Virus record (IMG/VR): IMGVR_UViG_2617270946_000019
Reading direction: 5' to 3' (one strand)
Source: a virus
Lineage: Duplodnaviria; Heunggongvirae; Uroviricota; Caudoviricetes
Length of the DNA stretch: 8,400 nt
A program made the translations under genes and the position numbers. The stretch's first letter is position 1. Each line of letters begins with the position of its first letter. Shown piece by piece: positions 1-8,400 of the stretch. The notes below the pieces were generated by a model, which searched no databases, had not been told where the DNA came from, and was given only the letters and a program-made list of their open reading frames with translations.

Positions 1-1230
1 CGTGAAATATACCGCCTGGAGCCTGAAGAAAGCTGTTGCCCGGAGTGTGGCGGTGAGCTGGATTATCTGGGGGAAGTCAGCGCAGAACAACTGGAACTGG
101 TGAGCAGCGCCCTGAAAGTGATCCGCACAGAACGGGTAAAAAAAGCCTGTACAAAATGTGACTGCATCGTTGAAGCACCGGCGCCGTCCCGCCCGATAGA
201 GCGTGGTATCGCGGGCCCCGGATTACTTGCCCGCGTGTTAACGGGAAAATACTGCGAACACCTGCCACTGTATCGTCAGAGTGAAATCTTTGCCCGACAG
301 GGTGTCGAACTGAGCCGTGCATTACTCTCCAACTGGGTTGACGCGTGCTGCCAGTTAATGACGCCGCTGAATGATGCCCTGTACCGTTATGTGATGAATA
401 CCCGCAAGCTTCACACTGACGACACACCGGTAAAGGTACTGGCACCGGGCCTGAAAAAGACGAAAACAGGGCGCATCTGGACGTATGTCCGGGATGATCG
501 CAATGCGGGTTCGTCATCTCCTCCGGCGGTCTGGTTCGCGTACTCATCGAACCGGCAGGGGAAACACCCGGAGCAACACCTCCGCCCCTTCCGGGGTATC
601 CTGCAGGCGGATGCGTTCACAGGTTATGACAGGCTGTTCAGTGCAGAACGTGAAGGTAGTGCGCTGACAGAAGTTGCGTGCTGGGCTCATGCCCGGAGAA
701 AAATCCACGATGTATACATCAGCAGCAAAAGTGCGACGGCAGAAGAAGCCCTGAAGCGAATCAGTGAACTGTACGCCATCGAGGATGAAATACGGGGATT
801 ACCAGAGTCAGAGCGTCTTGCAGCCAGGCAGCAGCGAAGCAAAGCGTTACTGACGTCGCTGCATGAATGGATGGTGGAGAAGAATGGCACGCTGTCGAAA
901 AAATCCAGACTGGGCGAAGCGTTCAGCTATGTACTGAATCAGTGGGACGCCCTCTGTTATTACAGTGATGACGGTCTGGCGGAGGTGGACAATAACACAG
1001 CGGAAAGAGCGCTTCGTGCAGTCTGTCTCGGAAAGAAAAATTACGTGTTCTTCGGTAGCGATCACGGCGGCGAGCGTGGAGCACTGCTGTACGGGCTGAT
1101 CGGCACCTGCCGTCTGAACGGTATCGATCCGGAAGCGTATCTGCGCCATATTCTGAGCGTACTGCCGGAATGGCCCTCCAACCGTGTTGACGAACTCCTG
1201 CCATGGAACGTAGTACTCACCAATAAATAA
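1..1230 (+). CDS. tnpC: IS66-family transposase (TnpC-type), 3' portion; 5' end lies upstream of the window
   Basis: The frame is open from base 1 (REIYRLEPEESCCPECGGEL...), so the GTG at 100 is not the true start. Translation shows a CPECGG zinc-finger-like motif and a long transposase body typical of IS66/ISEc8-type TnpC; stop TAA at 1228-1230. Assignment is by eye from the translation. Confidence 0.88.
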   Translation, partial: REIYRLEPEESCCPECGGELDYLGEVSAEQLELVSSALKVIRTERVKKACTKCDCIVEAPAPSRPIERGIAGPGLLARVLTGKYCEHLPLYRQSEIFARQGVELSRALLSNWVDACCQLMTPLNDALYRYVMNTRKLHTDDTPVKVLAPGLKKTKTGRIWTYVRDDRNAGSSSPPAVWFAYSSNRQGKHPEQHLRPFRGILQADAFTGYDRLFSAEREGSALTEVACWAHARRKIHDVYISSKSATAEEALKRISELYAIEDEIRGLPESERLAARQQRSKALLTSLHEWMVEKNGTLSKKSRLGEAFSYVLNQWDALCYYSDDGLAEVDNNTAERALRAVCLGKKNYVFFGSDHGGERGALLYGLIGTCRLNGIDPEAYLRHILSVLPEWPSNRVDELLPWNVVLTNK

Positions 1231-1260: not shown

Positions 1261-1435
1261 AAATTTTCTGGGTATTACGAGACAGGGCTTCCGGATGGCT
1301 GTCGTCATACAGTTCAGGAAACGTCATACCCAACTCAAAATAAGCCTGGGTTATTCCAGCTACTGGAACTTTTTCGCCATCAGGACGCGCCCAGGCATTC
1401 ATCGCCATGCGGATGTGTTCATGCTTGATTTTCAT
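1261..1435 (-). pseudogene. ydaT-like (CII-position) gene, 5' fragment of 58 codons, interrupted by the IS66 insertion
   Basis: Minus-strand ORF starting at ATG 1435 (MKIKHEHIRMAMNAWARPDGEKVPVAGITQAYFELG...) overlaps the 3' end of the upstream Cro-like gene by 17 nt. Beyond position 1261 the reading frame runs into IS-derived sequence. Position downstream of the Cro-like gene matches ydaS-ydaT arrangements; homology to YdaT is from memory only. Confidence 0.45.
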
Positions 1436-1691
1436 GAATCAACTCCGGTGCATTTGATGTGTTAACCTTGAATCCAACAGGTAAACCGTCGGTTGGGTTA
1501 GGATAAATATCAGGGCGAATTTCATGCGGGGTAACTTCCCACTTCATTAGCTGACATAACGGAATTACCTGCTTTGGGGGAACGTCAAAGCTAAACCATT
1601 GCCAAACTGTCTGTTGAGCGACCCCCATATAACGACCTATTTCAGCTTGAGTGTATTTCTGCCTAATTTTTTCGCGAGTGCTATCTAGCAT
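1419..1691 (-). CDS. Cro/YdaS-like HTH DNA-binding protein
   Basis: 90 aa; HTH-like segment QAEIGRYMGVAQQTVWQW and a conserved VTPHEIRPDIYPNPTDGLP motif typical of YdaS/Cro-like prophage regulators. Good RBS (AGGAGAG) 5-8 nt upstream of ATG 1691 on the minus strand. Divergent from the repressor gene. Confidence 0.75.
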   Translation of the reverse strand: MLDSTREKIRQKYTQAEIGRYMGVAQQTVWQWFSFDVPPKQVIPLCQLMKWEVTPHEIRPDIYPNPTDGLPVGFKVNTSNAPELIHENQA

Positions 1692-1725
1692 TTTGCTCTC
1701 CTCTAAAAAACTATAAGCAAAGCCT

Positions 1726-1764
1726 ACAATAAAAAACTGTACACAATCAACAGTTTTTTATTGT
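1726..1764. promoter_or_regulatory. Operator palindrome (OR-like): ACAATAAAAAACTGT-N9-ACAGTTTTTTATTGT
   Basis: Perfect 15-bp inverted arms with a 9-bp spacer, in the divergent intergenic region between the Cro-like and CI-like genes. A weaker palindromic copy lies at about 1771-1792 and a half-site-like AAAAAACTAT at about 1705-1714. Confidence 0.7.
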
Positions 1765-1800
1765 GATGCTTTTAACAGTATTTACCTGTAAAATTGAATA

Positions 1801-2202
1801 ATGATGAACGCCCTAGAAGTATCTATGTACAGAATCAGCAAGCTTCTTCAGGAAACTGGATGGAGCCAGGCTGAGCTTGCCCGTAGAATTGGTGTGACAC
1901 AACAAACTGTTCAACAATGGGTCAGCGGTAAGGCTACACCTAAAGCCTCAAGTTTGGATAAACTGGTTGAGGTTACAGGGCATCCATTGCATTGGTTTTT
2001 ATTGCCTCCTGAAGAGGGGGAGCAAATTTTCACCCCTGACACGATGAAAATTGGTCCTCGTCAACGCGAACTGCTCCAGGCTTTTAGTGCGTTTCCAGAG
2101 GAAGACCAAGAAAAAATGCTTCAAGAAATCAAAGACAAGAAAAAATCAATGGAAGAAACCATTGCCCGGTGGTTGGCGGCACAAAAAAGCCGCCGGGCGT
2201 GA
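1801..2202 (+). CDS. CI/DicA/PaaR-like HTH repressor (XRE family)
   Basis: 133 aa; N-terminal HTH (SQAELARRIGVTQQTVQQWVSG) and a C-terminal helical region resembling DicA/PaaR-type repressors. Tandem ATG ATG at 1801/1804 with essentially no Shine-Dalgarno. Divergent from the Cro-like gene. Confidence 0.8.
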   Translation: MMNALEVSMYRISKLLQETGWSQAELARRIGVTQQTVQQWVSGKATPKASSLDKLVEVTGHPLHWFLLPPEEGEQIFTPDTMKIGPRQRELLQAFSAFPEEDQEKMLQEIKDKKKSMEETIARWLAAQKSRRA

Positions 2203-2229
2203 CCACAGTACAAGAAGAGGAGTTATGCC

Positions 2230-2421
2230 ATGAGTACAGCCCTTTCTCCGATAGTTTCAGAATTCGAAACTACCGAACAAGAAAACAGTTACAACGAATG
2301 GTTACGCGCTAAAGTGGCGTCAAGCCTTGCTGACCCTCGTCCCTCAATTCCACATGATGAGGTAATGGCTGAAATGGAGAATCTTATTGCTCAAATTGCT
2401 GTAACTAACAGGAGCGAGTAA
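2230..2421 (+). CDS. PaaA-like antitoxin (partner of ParE-family toxin)
   Basis: 63 aa; RBS GAGGAG upstream; sequence ...SEFETTEQENSYNEWLRAKVASSLADPRPSIPHDEV... resembles PaaA2-type antitoxins as I recall them. Stop TAA overlaps the ATG of the next gene (TAATG). Confidence 0.7.
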   Translation: MSTALSPIVSEFETTEQENSYNEWLRAKVASSLADPRPSIPHDEVMAEMENLIAQIAVTNRSE

Positions 2422-2708
2422 TGTTACCCATTTTGTGGCTACCATCTGCTCGCGATGATTTGCGTCAGATCGTAGCCTATATTGCTAAGGAAAATATTCC
2501 TGCAGCACGCAGACTAAAAATACGGATTGAAACGTCTGTTTTAGCTCTCTCTGAGCATCCATATCTATATCCGCCAAGTGATCGAGTATCCGGTTTGCGG
2601 GAAATTGTGGTTCACCCTAATTATATCGTTTTGTACCGAGTAGCAGCTTCAAGCATTGAAATTGCAAATATTGTGCATGCCCGCCGACAATTTCCCTTCC
2701 CTATCTGA
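2421..2708 (+). CDS. parE: ParE/RelE-superfamily toxin (ParE-type)
   Basis: 95 aa; ParE-like pattern (W..A..DL..I..YIA..N..AA, REIVV..YIVLYRV, I.NIVHARR). Translationally coupled to the upstream antitoxin. Confidence 0.8.
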   Translation: MLPILWLPSARDDLRQIVAYIAKENIPAARRLKIRIETSVLALSEHPYLYPPSDRVSGLREIVVHPNYIVLYRVAASSIEIANIVHARRQFPFPI

Positions 2709-2725
2709 ACTGAACAATTTTCACA

Positions 2726-2750
2726 CTCCCTCATTCGAGGGAGTTTTTTT
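2726..2750 (+). terminator. Rho-independent terminator after parE
   Basis: Stem CTCCCTC / GAGGGAG with a 4-nt loop (ATTC), followed by TTTTTTT. Confidence 0.75.
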
Positions 2751-2760
2751 GCCCAATACA

Positions 2761-2804
2761 ACAATTAAAAACTGTTGACACAAAACAGTTTTTAATTGTA
2801 GATT
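2761..2804 (+). promoter_or_regulatory. Second operator palindrome (OL-like) overlapping a pL-like promoter
   Basis: ACAATTAAAAACTGT-N9-ACAGTTTTTAATTGT (2761-2799), differing by one base per arm from the palindrome at 1726-1764. Consensus -35 TTGACA at 2775-2780 and candidate -10 TAGATT at 2799-2804 (18-bp spacer), oriented toward the downstream plus-strand genes. Confidence 0.65.
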
Positions 2805-2980
2805 ATTTCCACTACCCCACCCCGCCCCACAGAACGCAGGGAAATACTTCGAGTTACCCGGCAGTGGTCAGGGGTTAAGTAGCCAGCCCGAGGCGTAAGA
2901 ACATGACGGCAGGGTTCAACTTTAACTATGCAGCAGGTTTTTGTTCCGCTACCCCGGCGTTAAGGGGAAATGAGGTCAGC

Positions 2981-3133
2981 ATGGATACTATCGATCTTGG
3001 CAACAACGAATCTCTGGTATGTGGTGTGTTCCCCAACCAGGACGGTACGTTCACCGCGATGACGTATACCAGAAGCAAAACGTTTAAAACTGAAGCTGGC
3101 GAGCGTCGCTGGTTAACCAGAAACACTGACTGA
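2981..3133 (+). CDS. YdfA/YdaF-like small prophage protein (DUF1391-type)
   Basis: 50 aa (MDTIDLGNNESLVCGVFPNQDGTFTAMTYT...) with RBS GGGGAAATGAGG before ATG 2981. The upstream ATG at 2903 lacks a convincing RBS. Family assignment from memory of the Qin/Rac small proteins. Confidence 0.6.
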   Translation: MDTIDLGNNESLVCGVFPNQDGTFTAMTYTRSKTFKTEAGERRWLTRNTD

Positions 3134-3144
3134 TGAGGTTGACG

Positions 3145-3519
3145 ATGGAATTTAAAGATTTACCAGTACCATTCCAGGAAATGGCATCGAATGTGGTTCG
3201 CTCTCAACTGGCGACTCTTGACCTGAGTACTGTAGAAAAAGAAACCATCGATACTATATCCGGTAACGTGCGTCGTGCCTTTATCGGTCTGTGCGAAGAG
3301 AAGCAGCTCTCTGATAACCAGGATTTACATGAAAAATACTTCCTGGAATTAATGGACATCATTAATAAAGGATTTGGCTTGTTAATGAAAAAGAAAGGGA
3401 TTCGAATAGCTCCCCTTGAAAATCATTTTACAGCAAGCAGTATTAATTCCTGTGATTTAAAGCATCACACATCCGATGGGAAAGTTGAATCAAACAACAA
3501 AATATCAATTAATCATTAA
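3145..3519 (+). CDS. Hypothetical prophage protein (ydfB/ydfC position)
   Basis: 124 aa from ATG 3145 (RBS GAGG 7 nt upstream); alternative start ATG 3133 overlaps the previous stop (TGATG). The C-terminal third is markedly AT-rich. No recognisable motif. Confidence 0.5.
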   Translation: MEFKDLPVPFQEMASNVVRSQLATLDLSTVEKETIDTISGNVRRAFIGLCEEKQLSDNQDLHEKYFLELMDIINKGFGLLMKKKGIRIAPLENHFTASSINSCDLKHHTSDGKVESNNKISINH

Positions 3520-3807: not shown

Positions 3808-3860
3808 CCTCTGTTATCACTTTTCTGGTGATTCGGCGGAAACGGATATCCGCCCTTTTT
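3808..3860 (+). ncRNA. dicF: DicF-like small RNA with intrinsic terminator
   Basis: Sequence UUUCUGGUGA...GGCGG-loop-CCGCCCUUUUU (3822-3860) matches the 5' start and 3' terminator of E. coli DicF as I recall it, but with a shorter internal segment. Terminator hairpin 3835-3854 plus T-run 3856-3860. Sits directly upstream of a dicB-like gene, as in the dicB operon. The 5' end is uncertain because DicF is produced by processing. Confidence 0.6.
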
Positions 3861-3864
3861 AAAG

Positions 3865-4021
3865 TGAATTTTGTGATGCGGTGAATGCGGCTATGCGCAC
3901 GCGGAACAGTTAAAGCAGTAAGGCGGTATTTTACGGGCGTAACGAGCATCAACTAATCCGGCGTTAATTGTTAACTGGTTAACGTCACCTGGAGGCACCA
4001 GGCACTGCATCACAAAATTCA
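3865..4021. repeat. Long-range inverted repeat (15-bp perfect arms: 3865-3879 and 4007-4021) enclosing 127 bp
   Basis: TGAATTTTGTGATGC at 3865-3879 is exactly the reverse complement of 4007-4021. In RNA the pairing extends to about 21 bp (3863-3883 with 4003-4023) allowing G-U pairs. Lies between the dicF terminator and the dicB RBS. Confidence 0.7.
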
Positions 4022-4038
4022 TTGTTGAGGACGCGATA

Positions 4039-4227
4039 ATGGAAACGTTATTACCAAACGTTAATACGTCTGAAGGTTGTTTTGATATTGGTGTTCTGCT
4101 CAGTAACCGGGAGTTTACTGAAGATGCCATTAATATGAGGAAATATGAGCCTTATCTGCTCAATGATAATTCCATACTTTCCCGAATTGCTCTTCTTGAA
4201 CTTGGTATTTTCGGAGAACGTCAATGA
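4039..4227 (+). CDS. dicB: DicB-like cell-division inhibitor
   Basis: 62 aa; N-terminus METLLPNVNTSEGCFDIGV... closely resembles DicB (MKTLLPNVNTSEGCF...) as I recall it. RBS GAGGA 5-9 nt upstream. Position downstream of the dicF-like RNA. Confidence 0.7.
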   Translation: METLLPNVNTSEGCFDIGVLLSNREFTEDAINMRKYEPYLLNDNSILSRIALLELGIFGERQ

Positions 4228-4507: not shown

Positions 4508-6979
4508 ATGAGTAAAGTCTTTATTTGCGCCGCCATTCCGGACGAACAGGCAATAAAGGAAGAAGGTGCCGTCGCTGTAGCCACTGCCATTGAAGCCGGT
4601 GATGAACGTCGCGCCCGCGCAAAATTTCACTGGCAATTCCTGGAACATTATCCGGCTGCTCAGGACTGCGCTTATAAATTTCTTGTCTGCGAGGATAAAC
4701 CCGGTATACCCCGCCCTGCCCTAGATTCCTGGGATGCTGAATATATGCAGGAAAACCGCTGGGATGAGGAGTCTGCTTCCTTTGTCCCGGTTGAGACTGA
4801 ATCAGATCCGATGAACGTCACTTTTGACAAGCTGGCCCCTGAAGTACAGAACGCTGTCATGGTTAAGTTCGACACATGTGAAAACATCACCGTTGATATG
4901 GTGATTAGCGCGCAGGAACTGTTGCAGGAAGACATGGCAACATTCGACGGACATATCGTTGAAGCGTTGATGAAAATGCCAGAAGTTAACACCATGTATC
5001 CGGAGCTTAAGCTGCATGCCATCGGGTGGGTTAAGCATAAATGTAAGCCTGGTGCCAAATGGCCCGAAATTCAGGCAGAGATGCGCATCTGGAAAAAACG
5101 TCGCGAAGGTGAACGCAAGGAAGCCGGAAAATACACGTCTGTTGTTGATCTCGCCCGCGCCAGAGCCAATCAACAGCACAGTGAAAATTCAACAGGAAAA
5201 ATCAGCCCGGTCATTGCTGCCATTCATCGCGAATACAAGCAGACATGGAAAACACTGGATGACGAACTGGCCTACGCTCTCTGGCCTGGTGATGTGGATG
5301 CCGGAAACATTGACGGCAGCATCCATCGCTGGGCAAAAAATGAAGTTATCGACAACGACCGCGAAGACTGGAAGCGTATCTCGGCATCAATGCGCAAACA
5401 GCCTGATGCCCTTCGCTACGACCGCCAGACTATTTTTGGCCTTGTCCGTGAACGTCCGATCGACATTCACAAAGACCCTGTGGCACTGAACAAATACATT
5501 ACTGAATACCTGACTACAAAGGGCGTGTTTGAAGATGAAGGAAGAAATCAGAGCGCAACTGATACTCTCTCGTCGCCAGTACCAGAAACTGATGCAGTGG
5601 AAACGGCAATTCCGGGCAACGAAAAAACCGAATGCAAAGTGGAAGTCGAACCATCTGTAGAGCGTGAGGGGCCGTTCTACTTCCTCTTCACCGACAAGGA
5701 TGGCGAAAAATACGGTCGCGCAAACAAACTTTCTGGTCTGGAAAAAGCACTAGCCTTGGGAGCTACGGAAATCACAAAAGAGGAATACTTCGCACGTAAA
5801 AACGGCACGTACTCAGGTTCACAACAAAATACTGGTGCATCTGACACGACCGCACAACCAGAGCCGGTAAAAGTTACCGCTGACGAAGTAAACAAAATTA
5901 TGCAGGCAGCCAATATCAGCCAGCCTGACGCCGATAAGTTGCTTGCTGCCTCTCGCGGAGAATTTGTTGCAGGGATTAGCGACCCGAATGATCCGAAATG
6001 GGTAAAGGGGATTGAAACCCGCGATTCTGTAAACCAGAACCAGCAAGAATCGGAACAGAACGACCAGAAAGCGGAACAAAACAGCCCAAATACGCAACAA
6101 AACGAGCCAGAAACGAAACAACCTGAGCCAGTAGCGCAACAGGAACCGGAAAAAGTCTGCACCGCCTGCGGTCAAAGCGGTGGCGGCAACTGCCCTGATT
6201 GTGGCGCGGTGATGGGTGACGCAACATACCAGGAAACATTCGATGAAGAGAATCAGGTTGAAGTTCAGGAAAATGATCCGAAGGAAATGGAAGGCGCTGA
6301 ACATCCACACAAGGAGAATGCTGGTAGCGCTCAGGATCACGCCAGCGATAGTGAAACTGGCGAGACGGCAGATCCCTTAATTGCGATGAACGGTCATCAC
6401 GTTATCACATCCACCAGCAGGACGTGTGACCATCTAATGATCGACCTTGAAACCATGGGAAAAAATCCTGATGCCCCGATTATCTCAATAGGTGCAATAT
6501 TTTTCGATCCGCAAACCGGAGATATGGGACCGGAATTTAGTAAGACTATCGATCTGGAAACTGCTGGCGGAGTCATTGATCGTGACGTCATTAAAAGGTG
6601 GCTGAAGCAATCACGTGAAGCGCAGTCTGCCATTATGACCGATGAAATCCCGTTAGATGATGCACTGTTACAATTGCGGGAATTTATCGACGAAAACTCC
6701 GGTGAATTTTTTGTTCAGGTCTGGGGAAATGGAGCCAACTTCGACAACACGATTTTGCGCCGTTCATACGAACGGCAGGGGATCCCCTGCCCGTGGCGTT
6801 ACTACAACGATCGCGATGTACGCACAATCGTTGAGCTGGGGAAAGCCATAGACTTCGATGCCAGAACGGCTATTCCATTCGAAGGTGAGCGCCATAATGC
6901 ACTTGATGACGCCCGTTACCAGGCAAAATACATTTCAGTTATCTGGCAAAAACTGATCCCGAATCAGGCTGATTTTTAA
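4508..6979 (+). CDS. Large prophage protein with zinc ribbon and C-terminal DEDDh (DnaQ-like) 3'-5' exonuclease domain; exodeoxyribonuclease VIII-like placement
   Basis: 823 aa. C-terminal domain carries motif I IDLETMG (D 6443-6445, E 6449-6451), motif II WGNGANFD (D 6743-6745) and motif III HNALDDA (H 6893-6895). CxxC-N7-CxxC zinc ribbon at 6158-6202, preceded by a Q/E/N/P-rich low-complexity linker (about 6035-6155). N-terminal about 370 aa has no motif I recognise. RBS GAGG upstream of ATG 4508. Confidence 0.8.
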   Translation: MSKVFICAAIPDEQAIKEEGAVAVATAIEAGDERRARAKFHWQFLEHYPAAQDCAYKFLVCEDKPGIPRPALDSWDAEYMQENRWDEESASFVPVETESDPMNVTFDKLAPEVQNAVMVKFDTCENITVDMVISAQELLQEDMATFDGHIVEALMKMPEVNTMYPELKLHAIGWVKHKCKPGAKWPEIQAEMRIWKKRREGERKEAGKYTSVVDLARARANQQHSENSTGKISPVIAAIHREYKQTWKTLDDELAYALWPGDVDAGNIDGSIHRWAKNEVIDNDREDWKRISASMRKQPDALRYDRQTIFGLVRERPIDIHKDPVALNKYITEYLTTKGVFEDEGRNQSATDTLSSPVPETDAVETAIPGNEKTECKVEVEPSVEREGPFYFLFTDKDGEKYGRANKLSGLEKALALGATEITKEEYFARKNGTYSGSQQNTGASDTTAQPEPVKVTADEVNKIMQAANISQPDADKLLAASRGEFVAGISDPNDPKWVKGIETRDSVNQNQQESEQNDQKAEQNSPNTQQNEPETKQPEPVAQQEPEKVCTACGQSGGGNCPDCGAVMGDATYQETFDEENQVEVQENDPKEMEGAEHPHKENAGSAQDHASDSETGETADPLIAMNGHHVITSTSRTCDHLMIDLETMGKNPDAPIISIGAIFFDPQTGDMGPEFSKTIDLETAGGVIDRDVIKRWLKQSREAQSAIMTDEIPLDDALLQLREFIDENSGEFFVQVWGNGANFDNTILRRSYERQGIPCPWRYYNDRDVRTIVELGKAIDFDARTAIPFEGERHNALDDARYQAKYISVIWQKLIPNQADF

Positions 6980-7043
6980 TGTTCAACCCCGGTCGTTGCC
7001 CACCAGCTATAGTGGCGGCGACCATGATTAGCGAACGACGCTC

Positions 7044-7292
7044 ATGGCAAGACTTATTCTGCTCACTGAGTGGGCAAAAGAGGAATTCAGTGAACCGGTC
7101 CCTACTCCGAGTACGTTAAGTAAATACGCTAAAGCCGGAATGATATTTCCTCTCCCCAAAAAAGTTGGAAGACGCTGGCGAGTGGATCCGCAAGCTCGCT
7201 TTGTCGGAATGGTAAACAAGCCGGAGGTGATCGCCACAGATCACCCTGCTTTGAAGAGGATACTGGAAGATGGCGCGCCCGCGAAAATATAA
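7044..7292 (+). CDS. xis: Excisionase (lambda Xis-like)
   Basis: 82 aa; pattern LTEWAK...MIFPLPKKVGRRWRV resembles lambda Xis (LTLQEW...RIFPPPVK). Overlaps the integrase start by 23 nt, as is typical for xis-int. Confidence 0.8.
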   Translation: MARLILLTEWAKEEFSEPVPTPSTLSKYAKAGMIFPLPKKVGRRWRVDPQARFVGMVNKPEVIATDHPALKRILEDGAPAKI

Positions 7293-8400
7293 AACCGATG
7301 TTCCGGGATTATCTCCGTATTTTGACAAAAGAAATAACAAAGTTTACTGGCGTTACAGGCATCCCATAACAGGCAAAAATCACGGTCTCGGCAGTATTGA
7401 CCAGAAACTGGCAGAAACTATTGCAGCAGAAGCGAACAGCCGTCTTGCCCGGCAGCAAATGGAACAAATGCTCAGTCTGCAGGAGAAAATTATTAGTGAT
7501 ACCGGCGGTTCATCAACCGTTACCATTTTTCTGAATAATTACAGAAAAATTCAACAGGAAAGATATGAAAACGGCGAGATCAAACTCAACACGCTGAAAC
7601 AGAAAGCGGCCCCTCTCAGGGTATTTGATGAACGTTTTGGCACCAGACCGTTAGATGCCATAACCGTAAAAGATGTGGTATCAGTACTGGAAGAGTACAA
7701 GGCCAGAGGACATAACAGAATGGGACAAATTTTCAGGAAAGTACTGATCGATGTTTTCCGGGAAGCTCAGCAAACGGGCGATGTCCCGCCAGGCTTTAAC
7801 CCTGCAGAATCGGCAAAAAAACCGCAGGTGCGGATATCAAGACAGCGACTGACTTTTGATGAGTGGATGATGATTTATAACGCAGCGGAAAAGGATGGTT
7901 ACTTTTTACAGCGCGGTATGCTGCTGGCACTGATGACAGGCCAGCGCCTTTCAGATATTTGCAAAATGCAATTTTCGGATATCCGGGATGGTTATCTTCA
8001 TGTCGAACAGCAAAAAACAGGAACCCGGATTGCCATCCCTCTGGCTCTGCGTTGCGATAAATTAAATCTCACCCTGGATGATGTGGTGTCATCCTGCCGC
8101 GATTGCGTTCTTAGTCCGTGGCTATTGCACCACCATCACGCGAAAGGGACAGCTAAGCGCGGCGGGATGGTTAAGCCAGCAACATTAACCGTTGCATTTA
8201 AAAAAGCCCGGGATTCTGTGGATTACAACTGGCGTGCTAATGGCACCCCTCCCTCTTTCCATGAGCAGAGATCTTTATCAGAGCGATTGTTCAGAGAGCA
8301 GGGGGTTGATACCAAAATTTTGCTAGGCCATTCGAATCAAAAAATGACCGATATTTACAACGACGCACGCGGTAAGGAATGGAAAAAACTGGTCATTTGA
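7270..8400 (+). CDS. int: Tyrosine integrase, lambda Int family
   Basis: 376 aa; conserved R (LMTGQRLSD), H-x-x-R (HEQRSLSERLF), LLGHS...MTDIY (catalytic Tyr) and a C-terminal RGKEWKK tail similar to lambda Int (RGREWDK). Stop TGA at 8398-8400 coincides with the window end. Confidence 0.92.
   Translation: MARPRKYKTDVPGLSPYFDKRNNKVYWRYRHPITGKNHGLGSIDQKLAETIAAEANSRLARQQMEQMLSLQEKIISDTGGSSTVTIFLNNYRKIQQERYENGEIKLNTLKQKAAPLRVFDERFGTRPLDAITVKDVVSVLEEYKARGHNRMGQIFRKVLIDVFREAQQTGDVPPGFNPAESAKKPQVRISRQRLTFDEWMMIYNAAEKDGYFLQRGMLLALMTGQRLSDICKMQFSDIRDGYLHVEQQKTGTRIAIPLALRCDKLNLTLDDVVSSCRDCVLSPWLLHHHHAKGTAKRGGMVKPATLTVAFKKARDSVDYNWRANGTPPSFHEQRSLSERLFREQGVDTKILLGHSNQKMTDIYNDARGKEWKKLVI

Follow-up and report, generated by a model that had tools for sequence, protein, structure and literature searches.

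A probable immunity switch of a defective Sp4/CP-933M-type lambdoid Escherichia coli prophage with a ParE toxin–antitoxin pair behind the repressor gene

The analysed window is a stretch of 8,400 nucleotides of the IMG/VR virus record IMGVR_UViG_2617270946_000019, and its positions are numbered from the first nucleotide. The following genes, and one repeat at a gene junction, were identified around the repressor.

100-1230, plus strand: open reading frame of an IS66-family transposase (NCBIfam transpos_IS66, 1e-120)
1262-1435, minus strand: truncated ydaT, a CII-like activator (PHROG 163 'CII-like transcriptional activator', 8.7e-20)
1419-1691, minus strand: ydaS, a Cro-like regulator (Pfam YdaS_toxin, 37.8 bits against a cut-off of 30; PHROG 35, 8.5e-28)
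1425-1442, no strand assigned: YdaT-box inverted repeat TTGATTTTCATGAATCAA (TTGATT-N6-AATCAA) at the ydaS/ydaT junction, in a PRE-like region
1801-2202, plus strand: PaaR1-type immunity repressor of 133 aa with an N-terminal 434-like helix-turn-helix (HTH) and a C-terminal PaaR-family domain
2230-2421, plus strand: PaaA-family antitoxin of 63 aa (Pfam PF21217 PaaA2, 76.9 bits against a cut-off of 27, 1e-21)
2421-2708, plus strand: ParE-family toxin of 95 aa (Pfam PF05016 ParE_toxin, 59.1 bits against a cut-off of 23, 6.6e-16)

The three consecutive open reading frames starting at 1801 were found with the ribosome-binding sites and the stop–start overlap that the original prediction had described. 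The repressor gene and paaA are separated by 27 nt containing GAGGAG, AGGAG precedes parE, and the paaA stop and the parE start overlap in TAATG. A scan found neither a promoter nor a terminator between the three genes, which are presumably cotranscribed. The assignment of the middle gene to a PaaA-like antitoxin and of the third to the ParE family held as well. PF21217 was the sole Pfam match of the antitoxin, no unrelated family appeared, and the protein matched PaaA2 (PDB 3zbe) at 1.5e-22; residues 1-93 of the toxin aligned with ParE2 (PDB 5cw7_B, 1.2e-37). The antitoxin is 90.5% identical to Sp4 ECs_1068 and 72.9% to PaaA2, and the toxin 86.3% to Sp4 ECs_1067 and 67.4% to ParE2. In the systems of E. 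coli O157:H7, ParE is reported to be toxic and neutralised only by its cognate PaaA, with post-segregational killing (PMC4803016, PMC8630535). Moreover, PaaA1 cannot neutralise ParE2, nor PaaA2 ParE1 (PMC4803016).

The first gene had been expected to encode a CI/DicA-like HTH repressor, and an HTH_3 domain was indeed detected (Pfam, 1.7e-13). The DicA model NF007257 (NCBIfam) aligned residues 11-130 of the repressor with positions 9-131 of 135 (E = 4.1e-14); with 52.6 bits, far short of the 101 bits that the curated model requires, the protein is regarded as a distant relative of DicA and not as a member of its subfamily. The repressor is 97.7% identical to Sp4 ECs_1069 and 36.9% identical overall to PaaR2 (42% over 98 aa, residues 37-133, 2e-20). 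The three proteins are thus homologous to PaaR2, PaaA2 and ParE2, respectively. An alignment revealed a C-terminal motif of the repressor that is common to four other PaaR-like regulators. Peptidase_S24 was absent among the 17 Pfam matches, and because the repressor is without this domain, RecA-mediated cleavage is not expected; the Sp4 repressor is also without a peptidase domain (PMC2669165). The best PDB match was the 434 repressor, restricted to the HTH domain (E about 1e-5). A search by sequence gave no solved PaaR structure, and the top PDB matches were confined to that domain. In the alignment the recognition helix TQQTVQQW falls on TQQSIEQL of the 434 repressor, whose residues Q28, Q29 and Q33 read ACAA.

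The ydaS gene is divergent from the repressor gene, at a distance of 109 bp, and its product is 97.8% identical to Sp4 ECs_1070. The homology of ydaT is confined to the first 58 of 141 codons, residue 58 being the last that aligns with the YdaT proteins of Sp4 and CP-933P. Near 1261, where the insertion element ends, ydaT is cut off, and the prophage homology of other E. coli genomes begins at 1261-1263. Because the IS66-family element truncates ydaT, the prophage is considered defective. The YdaT box matches TTGATT-N6-AATCAA exactly, with 0.04 matches expected by chance, and the same motif in the same position is the footprinted OM site (PMC9986795).

These families and the orthology to the Sp4 genes are established directly. 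Judged by sequence, the locus is a near-identical allele of paaR1–paaA1–parE1 of E. coli O157:H7, and for this reason it is genuine but previously described. The earlier remark that the genes resemble the O157:H7 paaR–paaA–parE systems and are probably not new was therefore correct, since they are an allele of the Sp4/CP-933M copy. We take Sp4 to be CP-933M, and ECs_1069-1067 to be PaaR1, PaaA1 and ParE1, in part on a published statement about CP-933M. According to that statement, paaR2–paaA2–parE2 has a homologue in CP-933M (PMC8630535). The paaR1–paaA1–parE1 system of the cryptic prophage CP-933M/Sp4 is attributed to Hallez et al. 2010, as cited in PMC8630535 and PMC4803016. Already known are thus the three-component system (2010) and, for the sister system of CP-933P, its embedding in a lambda-like switch. 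In CP-933P, PaaR2 plays the role of CI, YdaS that of Cro and YdaT that of CII, and the OR and OL/PL operators have been mapped (mBio 2021, PMC8630535; Acta Cryst D 2023, PMC9986795).

The regulatory features on both sides of the operon are listed below, operators being given without strand.

1721-1750, minus strand: putative PR, with −35 TTGATT (1750-1745), an 18-nt spacer and −10 TAGGCT (1726-1721), mirroring PL
1726-1740: OR1, left arm of the OR palindrome, a predicted 15-bp operator ACAATAAAAAACTGT between the −35 and −10 of PR, invariant in 19 distinct natural OR variants
1750-1764: OR2, right arm of the OR palindrome, a predicted operator ACAGTTTTTTATTGT, its centre 24 bp from OR1 and at about −44 from the presumed PRM start, invariant in the 19 variants
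1775-1789: putative OR3, ACAGTATTTACCTGT, weaker, 25 bp from OR2 and overlapping PRM
1789-1801, plus strand: putative PRM, with −10 TAAAAT (1789-1794) and a start at A1801 of the ATG
2725-2751, plus strand: intrinsic terminator of the repressor–antitoxin–toxin operon, with a hairpin at 2725-2744 (8-bp stem, 4-nt loop) and a T7 tail
2761-2775: OL2, left arm of the OL palindrome, a predicted operator ACAATTAAAAACTGT immediately before the PL −35; its sequence is conserved among 23 distinct OL variants, and the arm is flipped in locus L064
2775-2804, plus strand: PL-like promoter TTGACA (2775-2780)-18-TAGATT (2799-2804), 10/12 to consensus, driving the arm of DUF1391 ... exonuclease, xis and int
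2785-2799: OL1, right arm of the OL palindrome, a predicted operator ACAGTTTTTAATTGT between the −35 and −10 of PL, assigned from site matches and natural variants

The same palindrome, with 15-bp arms and a 9-bp spacer, had been proposed to flank the operon on both sides. Both palindromes are present with perfect arms: that at OR (1726-1764) has 15-nt arms and a 9-nt spacer, and that at OL (2761-2799) has 16-nt arms and a 7-nt spacer, the 15/9 reading also being possible. However, as only 32 of 39 bases (82%) are identical, the two are not strictly the same; taken as an inverted pair, their relation runs to 41 nt. OR and OL are separated by 1,035 bp. In 300 dinucleotide shuffles, perfect inverted repeats with a spacer of 3-12 nt reached 11 nt at most, compared with the 16 and 15 nt observed. 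The arm ACAATAAAAAACTGT occurs four times in the window at ≤1 mismatch, always within the two palindromes, and the five matches observed at ≤3 mismatches were reached in none of 200 shuffles. Likewise, the motif ACARTN5AYTGT at ≤1 mismatch has exactly five sites in the 8.4 kb, all of them at OR or OL and all starting with ACAA or ACAG; the sole further match beside the arms is OR3. A reading of the sequence and of the natural variants found no third operator at OL, where the terminator occupies the expected position. An extra half-site at 1707-1714 (AAAACTAT), which came from a direct repeat, was rejected, as it lies in the cro leader and is unconserved in natural variants.

The module is present in 509 of 5,426 complete E. 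coli genomes (about 9%), including ExPEC strains such as IHE3034; the whole window, at ≥80% coverage, had no match among the complete E. coli genomes. All 30 positions of the OR arms are invariant in the 19 distinct natural variants, and since these are closely related (repressors 92-100% identical), the invariance amounts to a footprint left within a short stretch of evolution. Variation is unconstrained in the spacer, whose positions 1-5 are hypervariable, and in the cro leader; OR3 varies at its central position 10 only.

The 15/9 geometry of the original prediction stands, whereas its reading as one operator is the less likely one: each palindrome is probably formed by two adjacent 15-bp operators ACA(A/G)T-N5-AYTGT with centres 24 bp apart. 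If each 39-bp palindrome were instead a single operator, the whole 15-9-15 unit would be read by one symmetric repressor oligomer. The perfect arms of both palindromes and the invariance of all 30 arm positions, including the mid-arm A/T tracts, fit such an arrangement, as does the oligomeric state of the paralogue PaaR2 in solution (PMC8630535). However, among natural variants the OL spacer is either 9 or 10 nt long, which counts toward two operators per palindrome, and L064 has its left OL arm inverted, which turns the arms into a direct repeat with the promoter layout still kept. Moreover, a lone third 15-bp site is found at 1775-1789, and an ACA...TGT dyad is present in every single arm, in keeping with a 434-like HTH dimer. 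We therefore regard the single 39-bp operator as rather unlikely.

When 2.9 million viral contigs were scanned, the repressor was present at 98-100% identity in every two-site locus. About 30 single-site matches were without the repressor and were treated as chance A/T-rich palindromes. The conservation of the sites and their co-occurrence with the repressor/cro module are direct observations; because the repressor and cro always co-occur with the sites, this co-occurrence cannot tell which of the two reads them. It would also suit YdaS as the main reader in place of the HTH repressor, and the YdaS footprint covers the same region as that of PaaR2 (PMC8630535). The PaaA–ParE complex might be considered too, as the PaaA2–ParE2 complex is reported to partly repress the operon of the paralogue (review PMC4803016). 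Against the latter, both palindromes are intact in two variants (L033 and L045) in which paaA–parE is deleted in frame, and in L064, where a 70%-identical PaaA2/ParE2-type pair replaces the toxin–antitoxin genes, the OR sites are kept and OL is altered by the flipped left arm; moreover, PaaA has no DNA-binding domain (PMC8630535). Against YdaS, the Cro protein ranges from 80% to 100% identity, and the arms and the repressor are fixed. A main reader other than the repressor is thus very improbable.

A consensus scan of 1400-3200 reported PL as its sole promoter-like site. The downstream palindrome had been predicted to overlap a −35 TTGACA, which was located at 2775-2780, so that the OL palindrome overlaps PL as a second operator set 3' of the repressor operon. 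The PL hexamers are kept in nearly all natural variants, with one exception (TAGTTT). The putative PR was missed by the scan because its −10 matches at 3/6 positions only; in the 19 natural variants TAnnnT at −10 and TTGAT at −35 are kept. Three operator-like sites lie between the divergent ydaS and repressor genes, and the promoter elements are in register with them. At PRM, TAAAAT is invariant in the natural variants and the 7 nt before the repressor ATG vary, never forming a Shine–Dalgarno sequence; the repressor gene is without a ribosome-binding site, and its mRNA is probably leaderless. The CP-933P OR has a GATAAT hexamer at an equal distance (6 nt) from the paaR2 ATG, and there 5' RACE placed the transcription start at the translation start (PMC8630535). 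Reading by eye at 16-18 nt spacing found no PRM −35 hexamer above 2/6 to consensus.

The terminator expected after the toxin gene was recovered at 2725-2751 by both scanning and folding (−13.9 kcal/mol, z = −4.5), and natural variants preserve its stem and differ in the loop. Rfam returned nothing at E ≤ 1 in 1400-3200. The consensus fold of the conserved PL leader had covariation in 2 of 35 pairs and a covariation term of −0.02, and no RNA structure is claimed. The OL palindrome was also flagged as terminator-like by the scan, and homology to heteroimmune phages resumes shortly outside the module, which would suit palindromes with a structural rather than an operator role, such as terminator hairpins or the boundaries at which an exchangeable immunity cassette recombines. 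However, their stems are A/T-rich with only 3 G-C pairs, the PL and PR hexamers keep a fixed register to the arms, OL already has a strong canonical terminator 10 nt upstream of it, and the conserved flank starts about 15 nt past the palindrome and not at it. We give a structural role almost no credence.

With the palindromes taken as paired operators of the repressor, the switch may work as follows. A weak, probably leaderless PRM-like promoter would express the PaaR1-type repressor together with PaaA and ParE, the transcript ending at the 2725-2751 hairpin. Repressor dimers would bind the 15-bp ACA(A/G)T-N5-AYTGT operators. Those at OR would cover PR, the presumed source of ydaS (Cro-like) and ydaT (CII-like) transcription, and those at OL would cover PL, the presumed source of the arm from DUF1391 to the exonuclease, xis and int. 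The third, weaker OR site over PRM could provide negative autoregulation, and OR2, centred at about −44, could activate PRM. OR and OL, 1,035 bp apart, could be bridged by the C-terminal domain, which renders the paralogue PaaR2 octameric. The toxin–antitoxin pair would most likely be an addiction module penalising loss or replacement of the immunity region. For the present locus we infer binding, promoter starts and looping. The original proposal that one repressor controls the toxin operon and both early promoters holds for the CP-933P paralogue, for which repressor binding, PR/PL repression, PRM activation, leaderless translation, bistability and addiction were shown (PMC8630535; PMC9986795), and would extend to the locus studied here by analogy.

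Taken together, the findings make it very probable that a defective lambdoid E. coli prophage of the Sp4/CP-933M type has its immunity switch here, with a ParE toxin–antitoxin pair behind the repressor gene. The divergent genes, the operators in register and the overlap with PL all support the predicted lambdoid OR/OL layout with the toxin–antitoxin pair in the position of rexAB, and paaA2–parE2 is likewise said to replace rexAB in CP-933P (PMC8630535; PMC9986795). What our analysis would add are the proposed pairing of 15-bp operators, the putative third OR site, the helix aligning with that of 434, and the variants that appear to swap or delete the toxin–antitoxin pair. We lean slightly towards the view that the PaaR1-type switch is a distinct immunity specificity, with five 15-bp ACA(A/G)T-N5-AYTGT sites and a 434-like helix on a PaaR oligomerisation tail, and that the toxin–antitoxin pair is a passenger which can be exchanged or lost and has no part in the working of the switch. 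A full-text search with the arm sequences and the ECs1067-1069 tags gave no match to this operator code in the papers of the literature collection searched. As a discovery, the locus is of little weight, and because ydaT is truncated and an IS element has taken the place of the right arm, the switch may control nothing of consequence in the present strain. Nevertheless, since the locus is common in E. coli, a defined set of PaaR1-type operators could help prophage annotation and the prediction of heteroimmunity, and variants without the toxin–antitoxin pair or with a swapped one are ready-made controls for the proposal in the literature that the immunity region is protected by the pair against replacement.

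Among known systems, DicA of the Qin prophage shares a near full-length match with the repressor and the same place upstream of a DUF1391 (YdfA-like) gene heading the PL arm; no toxin–antitoxin pair is known behind dicA in Qin. In other prophages of the group, dicB is found further along the PL arm. The phage 434 repressor offers the closest solved HTH structure, with an aligned helix-3 TQQ...Q, and the predicted half-sites here start with ACAA or ACAG; its operators, however, are 14-bp ACAA-N6-TTGT in contrast to 15 bp here, and the C-terminal domains are unrelated, the similarity being limited to the HTH.

The features shared with lambda are the divergent repressor and cro genes, operator centres 24-25 bp apart, three OR sites, a weak and probably leaderless PRM, passenger genes behind the repressor and a terminator before OL/PL. 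Unlike lambda, the locus has no S24 peptidase domain in its repressor and two detected sites at OL, its passengers are a toxin–antitoxin pair and not RexAB, and OR and OL are 1.0 kb apart, compared with about 2.4 kb in lambda.

CP-933P/Sp12 has the same repressor–antitoxin–toxin operon, divergent ydaS–ydaT, OR and OL/PL operators and YdaT box at the ydaS/ydaT junction, as well as the PaaR C-terminal domain, the PL leader and the downstream genes. It differs in the N-terminal DNA-binding region of the repressor and in an unrelated Cro-like protein (23%), and its operators are 18-bp inverted repeats with the half-site GTTTAGTAA, whereas those proposed here are ACA(A/G)T-N5-AYTGT. The closest relative is Sp4/CP-933M, from which the present locus differs by one base in the right OL arm, by an OL spacer of 9 nt in place of 10 nt, by ydaT being cut by the IS66-family element and by 13 of the 95 toxin residues; the gene order, the protein lengths (133/63/95 aa), the OR arms, the left OL arm and the PL hexamers are identical in both.

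The genes of the immunity region lie where the original prediction had placed them: repressor, antitoxin and toxin follow one another at the predicted positions, and a Cro-like gene is divergent from the first. The features of the region are as follows.

Within 100-1261: IS66-family transposase open reading frame (NCBIfam, 1e-120); element end near 1261
1419-1691, minus strand: ydaS, Cro-like, divergent from the repressor
1425-1442: YdaT box TTGATT-N6-AATCAA (TTGATTTTCATGAATCAA), exact, at the ydaS/ydaT junction
1750-1745 and 1726-1721, minus strand: putative PR, -35 TTGATT and -10 TAGGCT with an 18-nt spacer, mirroring PL
1775-1789: putative fifth operator ACAGTATTTACCTGT, 25 bp from the adjoining arm
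1789-1794, plus strand: putative PRM, TAAAAT, start at A1801
1801-2202, plus strand: repressor, Xre/Cro-C1-type HTH (HTH_3, 1.7e-13), without peptidase domain
2230-2421, plus strand: paaA antitoxin (PF21217, 76.9 bits; PDB 3zbe PaaA2, 1.5e-22)
2421-2708, plus strand: parE toxin (PF05016; ParE2 chain 5cw7_B, 1.2e-37 over residues 1-93)
2725-2751, plus strand: strong hairpin with T7 tail (-13.9 kcal/mol, z = -4.5)
2775-2804, plus strand: TTGACA-18-TAGATT (PL-like), within the OL palindrome, the sole sigma-70-like site in 1400-3200

The first gene had been described as a CI/DicA-like repressor, which agrees with its HTH_3 domain, with the phage 434 repressor as its closest solved structure and with a nearly full-length match to the DicA NCBIfam model (52.6 bits, far under the 101-bit cut-off). 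The domain and structure matches likewise identified the middle gene as PaaA-like and the third as a member of the ParE family; the two overlap by TAATG, and each is preceded by a GGAG-type ribosome-binding site. Both the terminator expected after the toxin and the TTGACA -35 overlapping the downstream palindrome were found. Beyond the OL palindrome, a DUF1391 gene, an unknown gene, a RecE-like exonuclease, an excisionase-like ORF and an integrase form the left arm of a lambdoid prophage. The exonuclease (823 aa, a partial match to the exodeoxyribonuclease VIII model), the 82-aa excisionase-like ORF and the tyrosine integrase, which runs past the window end, lie in 4508-8400. A match to the Rfam STnc100 sRNA at 3853-4071 (plus strand) is sub-threshold (31.2 bits against a gathering value of 47, E = 7.7e-4).

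In a distant DNA search, the paaA-parE part matched prophage Sp4 of E. coli O157:H7 Sakai with 85% identity. The repressor is 97.7% identical to ECs_1069, the antitoxin 90.5% to ECs_1068, the toxin 86.3% to ECs_1067 and the Cro-like protein 97.8% to ECs_1070; the gene lengths equal those of the window, and the OR and OL regions are both conserved. We take CP-933M of EDL933 to be Sp4 of Sakai. A paaR2-paaA2-parE2 homologue sits in cryptic prophage CP-933M, in the same strain as CP-933P (mBio 2021, PMC8630535), and, because of these identities and this correspondence, the window is assigned an allele of paaR1-paaA1-parE1. With orthologues in Sp4, the expected likeness to the O157:H7 paaR-paaA-parE systems holds, as does the remark that the system is probably not new, since it has already been described. 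The module, counted at a coverage of at least 80% of window positions 1400-2900, occurs in 509 of 5,426 complete E. coli genomes. The exact mosaic of this window is uncommon, as no match in a complete E. coli genome covered at least 80% of the full window.

The palindromes upstream of the repressor and downstream of the toxin are both real and perfect. The repeat search gave 15-nt arms with a 9-nt spacer for OR (1726-1740/1750-1764) and 16-nt arms with a 7-nt spacer for OL (2761-2776/2784-2799), for which a 15/9 reading is also possible. In 300 dinucleotide-preserving shuffles, perfect inverted repeats (spacer 3-12 nt) reached at most 11 nt, compared with 16 and 15 nt in the window. With at most one mismatch, the arm ACAATAAAAAACTGT occurs four times in 8.4 kb, solely at the OR and OL arms; with at most three, it has five matches, a number reached in none of 200 shuffles. 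The observation of two recurring palindromes was thus confirmed, but the two 39-mers are 82% identical rather than near-identical (the inverted-pair similarity reaches 41 nt).

Each 39-bp palindrome is probably a pair of neighbouring 15-bp operators rather than a single unit, because variants differ in having an OL spacer of 9 nt or, as in Sp4, of 10 nt; because in L064, a chimeric comparison locus, the left OL arm lies in the opposite orientation (ACAGTTATTTATTGT), which makes the arms a direct repeat; and because of the fifth site and a 434-like recognition helix. The motif ACARTN5AYTGT, with at most one mismatch, has exactly five sites in the window, of which four are the arms; among variants of the fifth, only the central base differs. 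In the alignment, the helix TQQTVQQW falls on TQQSIEQL of the 434 repressor, whose Q28, Q29 and Q33 recognise ACAA at the ends of the 14-bp 434 operators. The 24-bp and 25-bp centre-to-centre distances come close to the lambda OR1-OR2-OR3 spacings.

A scan of 2.9 million viral contigs for AAAAACTGT-N7-11-ACAGTTTTT gave 74 loci. All two-site loci carry the repressor at 98-100% identity; in most, the sites are ~1,035 bp apart as in the window, also with antitoxin, toxin and cro. About 30 single-site loci without any of these four genes were set aside as chance matches. All 30 arm positions are invariant in 19 distinct OR variants, in which spacer positions 1-5 and the cro leader vary freely; the putative PR -10 retains TAnnnT, and none of them departs from TAAAAT at 1789-1794. 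The arms and both PL hexamers hardly vary among 23 OL variants, and the terminator keeps its stem, with changes in the loop.

Two of the two-site loci have palindromes only 683 bp apart (L033, 7493-8202; L045, 5142-5851). Here paaA codon 22 is joined in frame to the final 22 parE codons and the toxin-antitoxin pair is lost, with repressor, cro and both operator sets intact. In L064, a PaaR1-type repressor of 92% identity (3650-3252 on the minus strand of that locus), with the OR arms unaltered, precedes a PaaA2/ParE2-type pair that shares 70% identity with the pair of the window. In L004 (1669-2980), an E. coli prophage, tandem PaaR-like genes encode a 123-aa PaaR2-type and a 153-aa PaaR1-like protein, with the second gene overlapping the beginning of a PaaA2/ParE2-like pair. 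The sites go with the repressor, not with the toxin-antitoxin pair, and from this loss, swap and tandem arrangement, switch and pair are separable modules. This separability speaks against the PaaA-ParE complex as the main reader of the palindromes, a role that we consider very improbable for it, even jointly with the YdaS alternative. It fits the published view of an addiction module in an immunity region (PMC8630535).

Other genomes are homologous to the window's prophage part from 1261 onwards, and the IS66-family element stands in place of the prophage right arm. The ORF past ydaS is the first 58 codons of ydaT, a CII-like activator, cut by this element. With YdaT truncated at residue 58 of 141, the prophage is, judged from its sequence, defective, and the establishment branch is probably dead. 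The YdaT box is kept despite the truncation; in CP-933P, YdaT was footprinted at the same position (PMC9986795). Over its first ~170 nt (2816-2980), in a block beginning CCCCGCCCCACAGAACGC, the PL transcript is almost invariant across the window and loci L001, L003, L004, L005 and L064, prophages that differ in repressors and operators (PaaR1-type, PaaR2-type and L003-type). The predicted fold of this leader showed almost no covariation, and no Rfam match was obtained for it. A short ORF from 2903 is joined to the DUF1391 gene in the window and ends early in Sp4.

By analogy with the paralogue, the fifth site, at about -19 of the putative PRM, would mediate autorepression, and the adjoining arm (OR2), at about -44, would mediate activation. 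No Shine-Dalgarno sequence precedes the repressor ATG in any natural variant. In the CP-933P OR, a GATAAT hexamer likewise stands 6 nt before the paaR2 ATG, at which the published 5' RACE start falls, and the paaR2 mRNA is leaderless (PMC8630535). An operator model for the PaaR1 immunity type was not found in the searchable literature, and the one proposed here is a reasonable prediction.

For comparison, a CP-933P-type locus was taken from an O157:H7 genome; its regulator starts MQKKE and the intergenic region measures 97 bp, both matching the publication. PaaR2 is homologous to the window repressor at residues 37-133 (42% identity, 2e-20), with ~60% identity in the last 50 residues (counted by eye from the alignment) and an unlike N-terminal region. 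Among regulators that precede paaA-parE pairs in other E. coli prophages, three end in the same C-terminal motif, Q-ELLQ-F-AFPE ... ARW-AAQ--RRA, and a fourth has a short extra tail after it. With this common motif and differing N-termini, the PaaR family seems to consist of a shared tail joined to DNA-binding heads that vary.

The system is already known, being of the paaR1-paaA1-parE1 type with a mechanism published for its paralogue, and the proposed interpretation is supported with refinements. Control of the toxin operon and both early promoters by one repressor, the suggested point of interest, has been shown for CP-933P and is not a novelty. There, PaaR2, which octamerises like CI, binds the paaR2-ydaS intergenic region, represses PR as well as PL, a promoter past parE2 with similar operators, and activates PRM at low dose; YdaS plays the part of Cro and YdaT that of CII, and the locus shows bistability, with an addictive toxin-antitoxin pair (PMC8630535). 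The Sp4 repressor was listed as a CI equivalent without peptidase domain by Asadulghani et al. 2009 (PMC2669165), and the position of paaA2-parE2 in place of rexA-rexB, with PaaR2 in place of CI, has been stated outright (PMC9986795).
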